Translations under genes and position numbers: made by a program
Part shown: positions 17,194 through 33,156 of the stretch, one piece after another
Layout of the letters: each line of letters begins with the position of its first letter
How positions within the stretch are numbered: the stretch's first letter is position 1
Notes under the pieces: generated by a model
Database searches by the model: none
What the model was told of the DNA's origin: nothing
Seen by the model: only the letters and a program-made list of their open reading frames with translations
DNA from: a virus
Taxonomy: Duplodnaviria; Heunggongvirae; Uroviricota; Caudoviricetes
DNA length: 37,027 bases
Reading direction: 5' to 3' (one strand)
IMG/VR virus record: IMGVR_UViG_2909303794_000007

Positions 17194-17507
17194 CGAATTT
17201 CTCCCGTGTACAGGAACAGAGTTAAAAAGCCGGAACCGGAATCAAATCACAGGATGACCATCTGCCAGTGGCTGGTCGTAAAAAAAAGGCCGCGCCATGC
17301 GCAGCCGGAAATAAAGGGATAACGATGATAGTTTGAGAAAAACAGAAATAACACTTTTGTGGCAAAGCATGGTGCCGGGTGCCTCCCGGTGAATTCAGTA
17401 CCAGCACCTGAATCCGCGATTATCCCATATACCTACTCGCTGATTGCCCCTCCGCACAGGGGGATTCACCATGCAGAAGTGTTTTTAATAAACAGCAAAC
17501 AAAAAAA

Positions 17508-18273: not shown

Positions 18274-18350
18274 TGGCGCGTTGTAGTGGAGTCGAACCAC
18301 TGACCGATTGCTTAGAAGGCAATTGCTCTGTCCGGCTGAGCTAACAACGC
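18274..18350 (-). tRNA. tRNA-Arg (anticodon UCU), phage argN/argO-like
   Basis: Reverse complement GCGTTGTTAGCTCAG...ATTGC-CTTCTAA-GCAAT...GGTTCGACTCC...ACAACGC-G-CCA: cloverleaf with anticodon loop CU-UCU-AA, T-arm GGTTCGACTCC and a 3' CCA. Confidence 0.85.
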
Positions 18351-19798: not shown

Positions 19799-19874
19799 TG
19801 GTGGCCCTTGCTGGATTTGAACCAGCGACCTGGCGATTATGAGTCGCTCGCTCTCACCACTGAGCTAAAGGGCC
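19799..19874 (-). tRNA. ileZ: tRNA with anticodon CAU, Ile2-like (phage ileZ-like)
   Basis: Reverse complement GGCCCTTTAGCTCAGTGGTGAGAGCGAGCGACTCATAATCGCCAGGTCGCTGGTTCAAATCCAGCAAGGGCCACCA closely resembles E. coli tRNA-Ile2 (ileX/ileY). Confidence 0.85.
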
Positions 19875-24194: not shown

Positions 24195-25283
24195 ATGCAA
24201 ATGCAGCATCTGATGGTTGGCTATCCTAAGTACTACCAAACGGCCGATTATGCGTTGAGGCTTTCAGTGATGGCTGATATAGCAACAATGAGAATGAAGG
24301 CTCTGCACTTCTGGGATAAACACGGTATTTCTGCAGCTTCTGAAGCCTTTGGCGTGTCCTGCCGCACGCTTTACTGGTGGCGTCAGTTACTGAACAAGGA
24401 AGGACCTGAGGGGCTAATCCCGCACAGTAAGGCACCTCTGGTGCGACGAAAAAAACACTGGCATCCCGATGTGCTGAAAGAGATTCGACGCCTCAGGACA
24501 GAGCTGCCGAACCTCGGTAAAGAGCAGATTTTTGTTCGCCTGAAGCCCTGGTGCGAACAGCGCTATCTGGCCTGTCCGAGTGTTTCCACCATCGGCAGAA
24601 TGATCGCTGCCGCACATGATAAAATGCGGATGATACCTGTGCGTCTGGGATCGCGGGGGAAGGCACTGCTTGTCAAAAAGCGGTCTGCCAAACCCCGCAG
24701 GCCAAAGCACTACCGCCCGGTAAAGACAGGTGAGCTCATTGGGATGGACGCCATTGAGCTCAGAATGGGCGAACTGCGTCGCTATGTCATCACCATGATC
24801 GACGAATGCAGCAATTACGCGCTGGCGCTGGCTGTGCCGTCACTCAACAGTGATATCGTCAATCACTTCTTCAGCCGCGCAGCCCGGTTGTTCCCGGTCG
24901 GTATCAGCCAGATAATCACAGATAACGGAAAAGAGTTCCTGGGAAACTTCGACAAAACGCTGCAGGAAGCCGCTATCAAACACCTCTGGACCTATCCCTA
25001 CACGCCAAAAATGAACGCTATCTGTGAACGTTTTAACCGGACGTTAAGAGAGCAGTTTATTGAATTTAATGAGATTTTACTCTTTGAAGATCTGGCGCTA
25101 TTTAACCAGAAGCTGGCGGAATATCTGGTGCTGTATAACAGCAAAAGACCCCACAAGGCGCTCGCACTAATGACGCCCGTGGAATATATTTTAAAAGAGA
25201 ATAAAAATTGCAATATGTGGTGGACCCATACATCTCCTTGCCTTTCGGCACGTAAGAGGCTAACCTACGTTTGTGAAGCATAG
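24195..25283 (+). CDS. DDE-type transposase/integrase (rve superfamily, N-terminal HTH; IS481-like single-ORF layout)
   Basis: 362 aa; N-terminal HTH region, central ...IITDNGKEF... and C-terminal ...YNSKRPHKAL... typical of the integrase core domain. The only plus-strand gene in a minus-strand block. IS ends not identified. Confidence 0.65.
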   Translation: MQMQHLMVGYPKYYQTADYALRLSVMADIATMRMKALHFWDKHGISAASEAFGVSCRTLYWWRQLLNKEGPEGLIPHSKAPLVRRKKHWHPDVLKEIRRLRTELPNLGKEQIFVRLKPWCEQRYLACPSVSTIGRMIAAAHDKMRMIPVRLGSRGKALLVKKRSAKPRRPKHYRPVKTGELIGMDAIELRMGELRRYVITMIDECSNYALALAVPSLNSDIVNHFFSRAARLFPVGISQIITDNGKEFLGNFDKTLQEAAIKHLWTYPYTPKMNAICERFNRTLREQFIEFNEILLFEDLALFNQKLAEYLVLYNSKRPHKALALMTPVEYILKENKNCNMWWTHTSPCLSARKRLTYVCEA

Positions 25284-25689
25284 ATTGGGCCTCAGATTAA
25301 TGTTAAGCGTCTTGCAGGACGCGTAATGTTAACTGGGGCTTTTCTCTGTCTGCCTTACGGTGGCATGCCCGAGGCAGACAGCCTCAAGCACCCGCAGCAA
25401 TTCTACTTAACTCTCGCTTTACCGCAAACCGTTTTTACCCGATATGGGAATTCCCATATCGTAATGAATTCAGTTCCCTAGTCGATCCATCAAAAACACA
25501 ACCAGGCAGTAAACGCCCACAACAGCAACAACAGCCAGCGCACCTTCCATTGCCAGTGATATATCATCCGACATATTCCCTCCTTTGGTGTTAATCCCGG
25601 CGAACGTTTTTACCCTCACCGACAAATAACATATACTAAAAAAGCGATAGCCATAGCAACGCCTGTAATTGCAAATGCTTCAGGCCAGT

Positions 25690-30674: not shown

Positions 30675-30703
30675 AAAACTCTCCTGTTATTTCGAGTAGA
30701 AGG

Positions 30704-30765
30704 GTAACAATAGTTACATAACAATGTCAACCATAGCAACATCACTTGGTAGTAACATTGGTTAC
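30704..30765. promoter_or_regulatory. Immunity-region operators: two GTAAC-N4-GTTAC palindromes between the cro-like gene and cI
   Basis: GTAACAATAGTTAC (30704-30717) and GTAACATTGGTTAC (30752-30765); the second abuts the cI ATG. Confidence 0.6.
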
Positions 30766-31440
30766 ATGAAAAACACTATCAGCGAACGTATTCGGAATCG
30801 TCGAAAAGACGTTGGATTAACCCAACAGCAGGTTGCGAAAGCAATCGGCATATCTCGTGTATCCGTAACAAAATGGGAAAATGGCTCTTCAAAACCTGAC
30901 GGTGAGAATTTGTATCTACTGTCAAAATTGCTTTCCAAATCTCCTGAATGGATTCTTTATGGAAAGGACGGTCACGATAAAGCCGATGATCTGCGTCTGA
31001 ATCAGTACCCTTACATTAGTGACAACATCGCCCGGTTGCCCGTTTTAACGTGGGAACAGGCTGGTTATTGGGATATGAGTTGTCCAGTAACCGAGATTCC
31101 TGGTATTAAGAATTGGGTTGATGTCATGACAAAAACCGCTGAAAACTCTTTTTTATTGCATGTTGAGGGAGATGCGATGACAAACTCTAACGGCCTCCCA
31201 ACCATCCCCGACGGATCTACCGTGCTGATCACACCATGCTCAAGTAACATTAGAGAACTGGTGGGAAAAATAATCTTAATCCAATTGGAAGGAACGCCAA
31301 ACGTAACACTAAAAAAAGTTGCGATTGACGGACCAAACATCTATCTGTTGTCACTGAATCCGCTTTACAAACCCATCGAACTGAATGGTGGTTACACCAT
31401 TAAAGGTAAAGTTTCACAAATACATCAATACTTAGACTGA
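30766..31440 (+). CDS. cI: CI-like repressor (N-terminal HTH, C-terminal S24/LexA-like domain with GDAM in place of the usual Gxx-S-M nucleophile motif)
   Basis: HTH LTQQQVAKAIGISRVSVTKWENG; C-terminal ...LLHVEGDAMTNS...VTLKKV... aligns with LexA/lambda CI Ser-Lys dyad positions. Start taken at MKNTISER (30766); the track ORF begins at 30724. Confidence 0.8.
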   Translation: MKNTISERIRNRRKDVGLTQQQVAKAIGISRVSVTKWENGSSKPDGENLYLLSKLLSKSPEWILYGKDGHDKADDLRLNQYPYISDNIARLPVLTWEQAGYWDMSCPVTEIPGIKNWVDVMTKTAENSFLLHVEGDAMTNSNGLPTIPDGSTVLITPCSSNIRELVGKIILIQLEGTPNVTLKKVAIDGPNIYLLSLNPLYKPIELNGGYTIKGKVSQIHQYLD

Positions 31441-31446
31441 GTCAGA

Positions 31447-31473
31447 ACCCGCATTCATTGCGGGTTTTTCATG
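31447..31473 (+). terminator. Rho-independent terminator after cI
   Basis: aacccgcaTTCATtgcgggtt stem-loop followed by tttt. Confidence 0.6.
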
Positions 31474-31502: not shown

Positions 31503-31528
31503 TTGACTCAAAAGGTAACTCTTGTTAC
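31503..31528 (+). promoter_or_regulatory. Putative PL-type promoter with a third operator palindrome
   Basis: TTGACT (31503-31508) followed by GTAACTCTTGTTAC (31515-31528), the same GTAAC-N4-GTTAC motif as at the cro/cI junction. Confidence 0.5.
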
Positions 31529-31712
31529 CTTAACAACATACCAACCCACCCCGCCCCACAGAACGCCGGGCAATACTTCGAGTTACCAAGCAGTGGTCAG
31601 GGGGTAAGTAGCCAGCCCGAGGCGTATGAACATGACGGCGGGAACACTTTGTATAACAGCGCAGCAGGTTTTTAGTTCCGCTACCCCAGCGTTAAGGGGA
31701 AATGAGGTCAGC

Positions 31713-31865
31713 ATGGATACTATCGATCTTGGCAACAACGAATCTCTGGTGTACGGCGTGTTTCCCAACCAGGACGGCACGTTTACCGCGATGACGTATA
31801 CCAGAAGCAAAACGTTTAAAACTGAAGCTGGCGCGCGTCGCTGGTTAACCAGAAACACTGACTGA
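31713..31865 (+). CDS. YdfA-like small protein (50 aa)
   Basis: MDTIDLGNNESLVYGVFPNQDGTFTAMTYTRSKTFKTEAGARRWLTRNTD resembles Qin YdfA as I recall it; GAGG Shine-Dalgarno upstream. Confidence 0.55.
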   Translation: MDTIDLGNNESLVYGVFPNQDGTFTAMTYTRSKTFKTEAGARRWLTRNTD

Positions 31866-32251
31866 TGAGGTTGACGATGGAATTTAAAGATTTACCAGTA
31901 CCATTCCAGGAAATGGCATCGAATGTGGTTCGCTCTCAACTGGCGACTCTTGACCTGAGTACCGTAGAAAAAGAAACCATCGATACTATATCCGGTAACG
32001 TGCGTCGTGCCTTTATCGGTCTGTACGAAGAGAAGCAGCTCTCTGATAACCAGGATTTACATGAAAAATACTTCCTGGAATTAATGGACATCATTAATAA
32101 AGGATTTGGCTTGTTAATGAAAAAGAAAGGGATTCGAATAGCTCCCCTTGAAAATCATTTTACAGCGAGCAGTATTAATTCCTGTGATTTAAAGCATCAC
32201 ACATCCGATGGGAAAGTTGAATCAAACAACAAAATATCAATTAATCATTAA
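31865..32251 (+). CDS. Hypothetical protein (128 aa), start overlapping the ydfA-like stop
   Basis: ORF in the left operon; ATGA start/stop overlap. Confidence 0.4.
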   Translation: MRLTMEFKDLPVPFQEMASNVVRSQLATLDLSTVEKETIDTISGNVRRAFIGLYEEKQLSDNQDLHEKYFLELMDIINKGFGLLMKKKGIRIAPLENHFTASSINSCDLKHHTSDGKVESNNKISINH

Positions 32252-32552
32252 TTTATTCACAGGTGAGGTAGAGTGCGTGCGCCGGACACGGATAAGAATC
32301 CGGCACTGACAGTTTACTGAAAAGGATATATCCCTGAAAAGTCAGGGCATAACACGAAAGCGCCCGGCGAAGTTAGTCTCTCTGTATAGGTCGTTAAATT
32401 TAATTCGATCGTGCGCTTCCGGTTGTGGCAATCCGCGAAATGGCGCGGCGGTAAGTATGGCGGGGTTATTCCTTCCCCGTTGAGGACACCGGGTTGTCAG
32501 GTTGACCATACGCTTAAGTGACAACCCCGCTGCAACGCCCTCTGTTATCAAT

Positions 32553-32608
32553 TTTCTGGTGACGTTTGGCGGTATCAGTTTTACTCCGTGACTGCTCTGC
32601 CGCCCTTT
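32553..32608 (+). ncRNA. dicF: DicF small RNA homologue (cell-division-inhibiting sRNA)
   Basis: tttctggtgacgtttggcggtatcagttttactccgtgactgctctgccgcccttttt matches DicF as I remember it (3' intrinsic terminator ggcgg...ccgcc-U5) and lies immediately upstream of dicB as in Qin. Confidence 0.6.
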
Positions 32609-32779
32609 TTAAAGTGAATTTTGTGATGCGGTGAATGCGGCTGAGCGCACGCGGAACAGTTAAAACCAAAAACAGTGTTATGGGTGGATTCTCTGTATCC
32701 GGCGTTAATTGTTAACTGGTTAACGTCACCTGGAGGCACCAGGCACCGCATCACAAAATTCATTGTTGAGGACGCGATA

Positions 32780-32968
32780 ATGGAAACGTTATTACCAAAC
32801 GTTAATACGTCTGAAGGTTGTTTTGAAATTGGTGTCACTATCAGTAACCCTGTATTTACTGAAGATGCCATTAACAAGAGAAAACACGAACGGGAGCTAT
32901 TAAATAAAATATGCATTCTTTCAATGCTGGCCCGTTTACGTCCGATACAAAAAGGATGCTGGCAATGA
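32780..32968 (+). CDS. dicB: Cell division inhibitor DicB
   Basis: METLLPNVNTSEGCFEIGVTISNPVFTEDAINKRKHERELLNKICILSMLARLRPIQKGCWQ, 62 aa, near-identical to K-12 DicB as I recall it. Confidence 0.8.
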   Translation: METLLPNVNTSEGCFEIGVTISNPVFTEDAINKRKHERELLNKICILSMLARLRPIQKGCWQ

Positions 32969-33156
32969 ATACAGCATTTGCACTTGTTCTGACAGTTTTT
33001 CTTGTTTCCGGAGAGCCAGTTGATATTGCAGTCAGTGTTCACAGGACAATGCAGGAGTGTGTGACTGCAGCAACCGAACAGAAAATTCCCGGTAACTGTT
33101 ACCCGGTCGATAAAGTTATTCACCAGGATAATAACGAAATCCCGGCAGGTCTTTAA
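32956..33156 (+). CDS. ydfD: YdfD-like small protein with N-terminal hydrophobic segment
   Basis: ...MNTAFALVLTVFLVSGEPVDIAVSVHRTMQECVTAATEQKIPGNCYPVDKVIHQDNNEIPAGL matches Qin YdfD; directly downstream of dicB. Confidence 0.65.
   Translation: MLAMNTAFALVLTVFLVSGEPVDIAVSVHRTMQECVTAATEQKIPGNCYPVDKVIHQDNNEIPAGL

Follow-up and report, generated by a model that had tools for sequence, protein, structure and literature searches.

What does the long untranslated leader in front of the small RNA (sRNA) DicF do? DicF is part of the dicF-dicB-ydfD cell-division-inhibition module, a well-known prophage module in which there is nothing new as such, and the stretch of its transcript that lies upstream of DicF is given no function in two papers that treat DicF (PMC5069750, PMC9438474). 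We analyzed a copy of this module in a 37,027-nt stretch of caudoviral DNA (IMG/VR record IMGVR_UViG_2909303794_000007), hereafter the window, on which all positions are counted, one strand, 5' to 3'. By its sequence, the segment 32252-33156 is almost certainly the middle part of the PL-type early-left operon of a lambdoid prophage. Within its leader we find a discrete, autonomous folded RNA domain (32422-32536) that is strongly supported by covariation and that appears undescribed, so that a known system would hold an unrecognized RNA component. We tentatively favor a role for this domain in cis, on termination versus read-through at the terminator that follows it, as is known for the nut and put sites of other lambdoid phages.

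The folded domain and its conservation

The domain is predicted to form a four-way junction of about 115 nt, the helices of which are listed in Table 1. The structure that we tested was built by hand and examined on two alignments, one made with MAFFT from 30 diverse copies (A3) and one guided by a covariance model from 33 distinct copies (A5), the latter of which leans toward the structure by construction. In A3, 93.5% of the cells are paired and 12 of the 39 pairs show changes on both sides; the corresponding values in A5 are 96.3% and 17 of 39. Slid controls gave 30-53% paired cells in A3 and 31-53% in A5, and the observed covariation values were reached by none of 500 shuffles in either alignment. 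Compensatory changes occur in helices P1, P2, Pb and P4, as exemplified by the replacement of GGGUUGUCA/UGACAACCC by GAGCUACCA/UGGUAGCUC in P4, and the many G-U pairs in both alignments fix the strand of the domain as plus. The loops are near-invariant, and the minimum free energy fold of the isolated domain has the same four-way-junction topology. The loop of P4 could additionally pair with an upstream strand in a candidate pseudoknot of 6 bp.

Directly upstream of the domain lies a short flank, GUGCGCUUCC, which is replaced by GUGCUCUCUUC or AUGCUCUUUCC in other classes and is kept even where the flanks further out differ. It matches the boxA consensus, UGCUCUUU, at 6-8 of 8 positions, a resemblance that we treat as a lead and not as a test. 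The only perfect boxA match elsewhere in the window, TGCTCTTTA at 24518 on the minus strand, was dismissed; it overlaps a 362-aa open reading frame (ORF; 24195-25283, plus strand) and has no nut-like context. As a separate observation, the invariant P4 loop (32500-32511) reads GGTTGACCATAC in the non-template DNA, in which GACCAT fits the -10-like pattern NANNAT that has been tied to sigma-dependent pausing in work on put (PMC9378689). The word ACCAU(A/G)CG is also present in stem I of putL; these likenesses could be due to chance.

We searched for earlier descriptions of the domain at several levels. Rfam 15, run at permissive thresholds, gave no match overlapping 32252-32552 even at E values up to 10, and no Rfam family matched the domain copies of phage P1, cdtI, pPE4 or F1055. 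Likeness to tRNA was considered and rejected, as ARAGORN was negative in nine related loci and the Rfam tRNA model was negative as well. Sequence strings of the domain were absent from the literature searched, although an earlier verbal account of the upstream homology may exist in older papers, and the domain is unannotated in the RefSeq records inspected.

The leader that holds the domain is not peculiar to this phage. Segment 32258-32553 has matches at 8,979 places in 4,314 of 5,426 complete E. coli genomes, and in nearly all of the genome records listed no feature is annotated beneath the match. In K-12 MG1655 the match (89.7% identity overall) is the ydfC-dicF intergenic region, and by this alignment the leader is that of the Qin prophage. 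Identity to K-12 is uneven; over the first 130 nt it amounts to about 85%, and between 32391 and the end of the DicF-dicB spacer, DicF included, it is essentially 100%. The final 175 nt of the leader are about 100% identical to K-12, and for most copies in E. coli the identity is 90% or more. The earlier note on this DNA had described the leader as GC-rich, as full of hairpins and as devoid of ORFs. The first description holds relative to the surroundings, since the G+C content is 0.515-0.535 across 32300-32599 versus 0.37-0.38 in neighboring 200-nt windows; in absolute terms it does not, as the value is close to the average of the E. coli genome. The three hairpins it quoted (32281-32304, 32332-32347 and 32493-32525) all exist. 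As to coding potential, only ORFs of 36 aa (plus strand) and 69 aa (minus strand) are listed, and neither is a conserved reading frame; because homologues carry indels of 1, 2, 4 and 5 nt inside both, that is, indels that are not multiples of three, we rejected a coding function and regard the leader as non-coding, as the note had it.

Conservation differs sharply between the two parts of the leader. Diversity was compared on 32 distinct full-length homologues from loci chosen by a pattern in which about 25 nt of the domain are prescribed, so that the value for the domain, 0.020 per nucleotide over 32423-32542, is partly constrained by this selection; in 32512-32551, outside the search pattern, it is 0.003-0.006. 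The 5' half of the leader reaches 0.055, compared with 0.020 in DicF, 0.016 in the DicF-dicB spacer, and 0.048 and 0.099 at the third codon positions of dicB and ydfD, respectively. The 5' half evolves about as fast as synonymous sites, similarly to the third positions of dicB. RNAalifold on 31 homologues found no pair in the 5' half with changes on both sides; the long-range pairs it proposed there were rejected, as none has a two-sided change and one competes with helix P1. Hairpins 32281-32304 and 32332-32347 are real features of the sequence that have no comparative support. The 5' portion of the domain recurs in degenerate form within the 5' half of the leader (32358-32380 versus 32437-32460; CGAAAGCGCCCGGCGAAGUUAG versus CGAAAUGGCGCGGCGGUAAGUAUG). 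In one IMG/VR variant (L029) and two Shigella copies (L012, L072) the sequence is fused at this repeat and the 5' strand of helix P1 is absent, which looks like a deletion between the repeats.

These comparisons bear on the simplest explanation, namely that the domain has no specific function, that folding only protects a long untranslated stretch from Rho and nucleases, and that its identity among genomes reflects the recent spread of one mosaic block. About 530 nt are untranslated between the upstream ORF and dicB, and long untranslated stretches are targets of Rho unless folded. The family is narrow, identity among most E. coli copies is high, and the folding-energy z-scores are ordinary. 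On the other hand, divergence in the 5' half of the leader and at adjacent synonymous sites is 2-5 times greater than in the domain, and the helices are preserved by compensatory changes even between classes with no more than about 77-85% identity. Because of these two findings, we disfavor this explanation and consider it improbable. A scan of IMG/VR for variants of the 5' strand of the pseudoknot points the same way: only three true members were recovered, all of them single mutants that deviate from the model at other positions too, and the remaining hits were chance matches.

Distribution and genomic setting

Comparison with phage genomes by BLAST sets the domain apart from its surroundings. 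Only 32422-32544 is common to cdtI, Stx2c phages, Ayreon and 2H10 (90% identity), and only 32433-32529 is common to P1 and P7 (78-82% identity); in the cdtI-type phages and P1 these blocks coincide with the borders of the domain. The domain is found without the 5' leader and without DicF in cdtI, Stx2c phages, Ayreon, 2H10, pPE4 and Salmonella phage F1055, and likewise in prophages of Citrobacter, Serratia, Erwinia, Trabulsiella and Izhakiella. A pattern scan of genomes returned 16 loci (Escherichia, Shigella, Citrobacter, Serratia symbiotica, Trabulsiella, Erwinia tracheiphila, Izhakiella), including three metagenome-assembled genomes labeled Bacillota, Veillonella and Collinsella that are probably misbinned, their sequences matching the E. 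coli or P1 types. The same scan of IMG/VR found the domain in more than 120 contigs, with a further 20 loci in which hairpin Pb is divergent, and the scans of three collections together yielded 75 distinct core sequences. The covariance model detects exactly one copy per locus (90-156 bits) and no second, PR-side copy in the window or in 57 loci.

All annotated copies are located in early operons under repressor control, on the strand that is transcribed; they follow cI in this window, cdtI and F1055, DicA in Qin and pPE4, and the promoter Pban in P1. Among the 123 loci with enough upstream sequence, 82 have a repressor homologue on the same strand whose end is 350-2174 nt away from the domain on its upstream side (median about 1 kb). 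The first gene after the domain is dicB at 84 loci, kil at 5 and another gene at 45. What follows the domain without exception is a GC-rich hairpin with a U-run (28 of 28 distinct downstream sequences), the stem of which starts about 15-60 nt past the domain and the U-run of which ends within about 125 nt. All classes except P1 share the hairpin base UUGGCGG...CCGCCCUUUUU, whereas the interior varies; DicF is one such interior, and the Rfam DicF model has no match in the hairpins of cdtI, pPE4 and P1.

A domain with an intrinsic terminator behind it is how attenuators are classically arranged, and a multi-helix junction with a candidate pseudoknot and conserved unpaired nucleotides would suit a sensor. 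The domain might therefore bind a metabolite, an ion, a tRNA or a protein and switch the downstream terminator through its fold. The distance to the terminator, however, varies from about 15 to about 60 nt, the linker differs between classes, inspection of five classes revealed no conserved alternative pairing of the domain's 3' strand with the terminator's 5' arm, and P1 combines a different terminator with an unchanged domain core. Of all the explanations weighed here, we consider a sensor of this type the least probable.

The copies in phages P1 and P7 start about 40 nt downstream of the C1-controlled promoter Pban, ahead of tRNA genes and ban. The annotation of P1 includes a 'dicF-like region' (NC_005856, 68716-68892; positions 2478-2654 of our locus L003), which overlaps the 3' half of the domain and an unrelated terminator, GCCCAUCUUCGGGUGGGC-U7. 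Since the Rfam DicF model fails on P1, the base of the hairpin differs and the overlap lies in the domain, the similarity is, on this sequence evidence, due to the 3' half of the domain and not to DicF. The P1 match had also raised the C4 antisense RNA as a candidate, which we rejected, as the match lies in the ban operon and not in immI and RF01695 has no match.

In P1, promoter, domain and terminator would together give an RNA of about 170 nt without an ORF, and this raises the possibility that the domain is a product in its own right. After cleavage by ribonuclease E (RNase E), 115-130 nt might persist as a stable non-coding RNA that acts in trans, for example as a protein decoy, a tRNA-like mimic or an anti-defense RNA synthesized soon after induction. 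This idea is in keeping with the autonomous, closed four-way junction and its cloverleaf-like topology, with near-invariant loops of the kind expected of a binding surface, and with the T-arm-like and anticodon-arm-like hairpins that flank the domain in F1055 and Erwinia. The domain has no match in the tRNA or any other Rfam model, however, and the idea does not account for its strict association with terminators and early operons; we regard it as rather improbable. The flanking hairpins are noteworthy in themselves. In F1055 (L143, 3900-4380) and Erwinia tracheiphila (L020, 4400-4880) two T-arm-like hairpins, GGUUCGAUUCC and CCGUUCAAUUCGG, precede the domain; next comes a terminator, in the loop of which lie the Shine-Dalgarno sequence and start codon of a possible 35-45-codon ORF, and then a long stem enclosing GGGCUCAUAACCC, which resembles an anticodon arm with the anticodon CAU. 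The whole 500-nt non-coding block in these two genomes may be one larger RNA.

Termination, read-through and the release of DicF

We propose, with reserve, that the domain acts in cis on the transcribing complex and would thereby set how many polymerases stop at the following terminator. Polymerases that stop would yield a short leader RNA and DicF, while the remainder would read on into dicB, ydfD, exonuclease, xis and int, which include toxic genes and the late genes of the early-left operon. The domain would then be a functional analogue of nut and put sites in phages in which no N-like gene has been detected. We favor this proposal because the following terminator is the only invariant partner of the domain, because the domain sits where nut and put sites sit, and because no N-like gene was found in the left operon (ORF list and Pfam) and the genes from dicB to int can be expressed only by read-through. 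The position of the domain also fits control of elongation, with exactly one copy per locus, always in the sense orientation of an early operon under a repressor. There are precedents as well: in HK022, antitermination is brought about in cis by the put RNA (PMC9378689), the annotation of HK639 shows one put-like RNA, confined to the left operon, and StxS is reported to be an sRNA that arises as a by-product of an early terminator controlled by antitermination (PMC7547250). A more far-reaching version would see in the domain a new class of phage leader RNA that acts in cis on RNA polymerase during elongation, by itself or together with Nus or further host factors, and governs terminator read-through. 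It would be the nut/put equivalent of N-less lambdoid phages of the Qin, cdtI and F1055 types and of the P1 ban operon, and DicF would have evolved from the terminator hairpin of an attenuated leader. We consider this version doubtful.

The analogy has limits in each of the known systems. Like put of HK022 and HK639, the domain is a structured RNA that precedes terminators in the early-left transcript of lambdoid phages lacking N, and both hold the words GGCGCG and ACCAU(G/A)CG, perhaps by chance. However, put is a V-shaped RNA of about 70 nt with two stems, located directly after PL (PMC9378689), whereas the domain is a 115-nt four-way junction, lies 40-900 nt or more from the promoter and has an antitermination role that is only proposed; blastn-short detected no similarity between the two. 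Put suppresses termination in cis by way of the zinc-binding domain of the RNA polymerase beta' subunit. With lambda nut it shares the early-operon position before the first terminator and a boxA-like GUGC(G/U)CU(U/C)... directly 5' of the structured element. There is, by contrast, no boxB-type hairpin of 15 nt and no N-like gene found in the left operon, and the boxA match is imperfect (6/8 in this window) and absent in P1. The PR'-tR' leader RNAs (6S RNA/StxS sRNA) resemble DicF in that a short RNA that ends at an early intrinsic terminator doubles as a regulatory sRNA and read-through expresses the downstream genes (PMC7547250); theirs is a late operon in which read-through depends on the Q protein at a DNA site, whereas here the operon is early-left.

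The processing of DicF bears on a close rival. In K-12, the 5' end of DicF depends on RNase E, and the 3' end is made either by termination, giving a 53-nt form, or by RNase III, giving a 72-nt form; DicF is classed among the sRNAs derived from 3' untranslated regions (UTRs) (PMC5069750, PMC9438474). In the window, RF00039 in its full length (model positions 1-52 of 52) matches 32554-32605 on the plus strand; the score of 76.7 bits is above the gathering score, 48, and UUUUU at 32606-32610 follows the hairpin directly. The DicF-like sRNA with an intrinsic terminator that had been read from the sequence is thus borne out. The alignment with the K-12 ydfABC-dicF-dicB locus that had been suggested as a check shows, as a three-way comparison with K-12 Qin and strain E2855, that the DicF stretch is base-for-base identical. 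DicF regulates ftsZ, metabolism and the virulence of enterohemorrhagic E. coli. For the copy studied here we infer repression of ftsZ, as well as a 5' end made by RNase E, solely from the complete identity to the experimentally studied K-12 DicF. The 16-nt AU-rich linker GCCCUCUGUUAUCAAU, located between two stable structures, is the probable RNase E site.

With such a linker in place, the folded domain might be a 5' barrier that places RNase E on it, so that the 3' UTR of the upstream gene yields a precise, 5'-monophosphorylated sRNA of the DicF type while RNA polymerase is unaffected. Several findings agree with this, including the RNase E dependence and 3'-UTR origin of DicF, the invariance of the linker, a title in the reference list of PMC9438474 on stem-loops that direct precise RNase E processing of MicL, and the hairpin with U-tract that always follows the domain. 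A hairpin with a U-tract could bind Hfq. Yet a simple hairpin would suffice for this purpose in place of a four-helix domain with near-invariant loops, and cdtI-type phages, with only about 11 nt between domain and terminator, leave no room for a 5' seed. In addition, the interiors of the non-DicF hairpins vary, unlike a conserved seed, and the Rfam DicF model has no match there. We judge this explanation possible, if somewhat unlikely.

The earlier note had proposed that the leader itself is the substrate of RNase III and RNase E from which DicF is released. For RNase E at the junction of leader and DicF this is plausible, since the sequence is identical to that of K-12, where such processing has been demonstrated. 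RNase E processing explains the AU-rich linker; it does not explain a near-invariant four-helix domain that is also present in phages with a non-DicF hairpin downstream. For RNase III the proposal did not hold. The spacer between DicF and dicB contains a 19-bp inverted repeat that is 100% complementary, with two K-12 substitutions in the stem giving G-U pairs, and it folds with -66.1 kcal/mol (z = -5.35). The published 72-nt form of DicF (PMC5069750) is projected to end at about 32624-32625, within the 5' arm of this stem. On account of the perfect stem and of this end point, the RNase III-type substrate is probably the 19-bp stem downstream of DicF and not the leader. Extrapolated from the K-12 experiments by sequence identity, a cut by RNase E in the linker would make the 5' end of DicF, the hairpin and U-tract would act as intrinsic terminator for the 53-nt form, and a cut by RNase III in the 19-bp stem would give the 72-nt form and detach the leader from the dicB mRNA.

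The spacer also resembles STnc100. Segment 32603-32812 aligns across the full model RF02076, with which it shares a long closing stem around several hairpins, at 40.1 bits (E = 9e-7 in a 1.9-kb search); this is below the gathering score of 47, and the similarity concerns the spacer after DicF and not the leader before it. A bona fide STnc100 (101.5 bits) is located at 17331-17503 on the minus strand, in the apparent leader of a late operon just downstream of two tRNA genes (18277-18350 and 19802-19874, minus strand). One and the same long-stem module may thus serve two operons of this phage.

Returning to the proposed control of read-through in cis, a number of observations weigh against it. 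The folding energy of the isolated domain is unremarkable (z = -1.14), and that of the whole leader with DicF does not exceed chance (z = -1.63). P3, P4b and the pseudoknot are almost invariant and thus show almost no covariation, which says little either way; for the pseudoknot there are one double change, in phage P1, and three G-U cells, and it is partly fixed by the search patterns. The P1 and P7 copies have neither a convincing closing helix nor the boxA-like flank. Inspection of five classes, made with no dedicated co-folding, revealed no mutually exclusive pairing of terminator and antiterminator type. A terminated 53-nt DicF has been reported in K-12 (PMC5069750), so the terminator works with the domain present. 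Homology to put was rejected, as the domain model finds nothing in HK022 or, with filters off, in HK639. Finally, the domain lies about 890 nt from PL in this window, the family is confined to phages of Enterobacterales, and part of the conservation may reflect recent horizontal spread.

The surrounding operon and what the domain would mean

The operon around the domain is that of Qin under different control. It runs from CI and OL/PL through the ydfA-like gene, the 124-aa ORF, the 300-nt untranslated leader, DicF, the structured spacer, dicB and ydfD to exonuclease, xis and int (Table 1), and the copy of the module is 99% identical to one in strain E2855. Qin shares the order of the ydfA-like gene, leader, DicF, spacer, dicB and ydfD, an identical DicF, and about 100% identity in the last 175 nt of the leader and in the spacer, and the processing scheme published for Qin holds here as well; dicB follows on the same strand, 170 nt beyond DicF. 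Upstream of the leader, only the type of repressor and the ORF that replaces ydfB and ydfC differ. Qin has DicA/DicC, whereas this locus is the dicBF module controlled by a LexA-type CI with GGTAAC-N4-GTTAC operators; ydfB and ydfC are replaced by the unrelated 124-aa ORF, and exonuclease, xis and int, which are interrupted in Qin, are uninterrupted here. Homology to Qin, as aligned with K-12, restarts directly past the stop codon of the 124-aa ORF. The mosaic junction with sequence of the Qin type lies exactly at this stop, and other variants carry a short hairpin there (CUCCAC...GUGGAG or ACACG...CGUGU). The module, its processing scheme and its occurrence under CI-type repressors in prophages of pathogenic E. 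coli are already known.

These results agree with most of what the earlier note had read from the genes. Pfam supports dicB and ydfD as in Qin and, through HTH_3 and Peptidase_S24, a LexA-like CI upstream, and the contrast drawn with DicA-controlled Qin is correct as far as it was stated. A P22-Cro-type gene and a YdaT-family gene (Pfam) are oriented divergently to the CI gene. The PL-type site with an operator likewise finds support. The operator motif GGTAACnnnnGTTAC occurs at 30703, 30751 and 31514, with 7 matches against 0.34 expected by chance, and the core GGTAAC-N4-GTTAC is common to the 31514 site and two sites in the cI-cro region. From the palindromic core and the motif count we infer PL itself, with an OL operator over a weak promoter that a consensus promoter scan missed. 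Two further features of the prophage were noted. The 823-aa early-left protein (33249-35720, plus strand) matches an Rv2179c-like 3'-5' exoribonuclease domain over its C-terminal 180 aa (227 bits), has a long N-terminal part without a Pfam match, and has a homologue named 'exonuclease' in RefSeq. A sok antitoxin RNA (RF01794, 112 bits) at 25227-25393 on the minus strand implies a toxin-antitoxin locus of the hok/sok type.

Table 1. Coordinates of the leader domain and of the features around it
Feature	Position	Strand	Basis or remark
Conserved leader RNA domain, four-way junction, ~115 nt	32422..32536	+	covariation, minimum free energy fold, covariance model
Helix P1, 8 bp	32422-29/32529-36
Helix P2, 5 bp	32433-37/32444-48
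Helix P3, 4 bp	32449-52/32488-91		encloses variable hairpin Pb
Hairpin Pb, variable	32461-65/32475-79
Helices P4 + P4b, 11 bp	P4 32492-99/32519-26; P4b 32500-02/32512-14
Candidate pseudoknot, 6 bp	32455-60 with 32506-11		GUAUGG with P4-loop CCAUAC
Conserved 5' flank	32411..32420	+	kept across classes with differing further flanks
5' half of untranslated leader, weakly constrained	32252..32410	+	hairpins 32281-32304 and 32332-32347; ~85% identical to K-12
AU-rich single-stranded linker, 16 nt	32537..32552	+	identical to K-12; diversity 0.000 among 32 loci
DicF sRNA, hairpin + U-tract = intrinsic terminator	32553..32610	+	Rfam RF00039; 100% identical to K-12
Structured DicF-dicB spacer, probable RNase III site	32615..32762	+	perfect 19-bp stem 32615-33/32744-62
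dicB, cell-division inhibitor gene	32780..32968	+	Pfam PF05358, 127.4 bits vs cut-off 27, full length
ydfD (DUF1482)	32965..33156	+	Pfam PF07358, 88 bits vs cut-off 25; start overlaps dicB stop codon
LexA-type CI repressor gene	30724..31440	+ (left-operon strand)	Pfam HTH_3 62.5 bits, Peptidase_S24 61 bits
Terminator-like hairpin after CI gene	31446-31469	+	read from sequence
Putative PL	31503..31531	+	-35 TTGACT 31503-08, 17-nt spacer, weak -10 TACCTT 31526-31
Palindromic operator AAGGTAAC-TCTT-GTTACCTT	31512-31531		overlaps putative PL
ydfA-like gene (DUF1391), first in left operon	31710..31865	+	Pfam DUF1391 97 bits; near-identical to K-12 ydfA
124-aa ORF in position of Qin ydfB/ydfC	31877..32251	+	no Pfam match; annotated hypothetical protein in strain E2855

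About 80% of complete E. coli genomes carry the domain, among them K-12, and so does phage P1. The annotation of a 'dicF-like region' in P1 would need correcting, given that the homology between P1 and Qin lies in the domain and not in DicF. If the proposed action in cis is true, it would explain how lambdoid prophages without N gate their toxic early-left genes, such as dicB and kil, as well as the amount of DicF, and the domain would represent a third RNA solution, besides nut and put, to antitermination in early operons.

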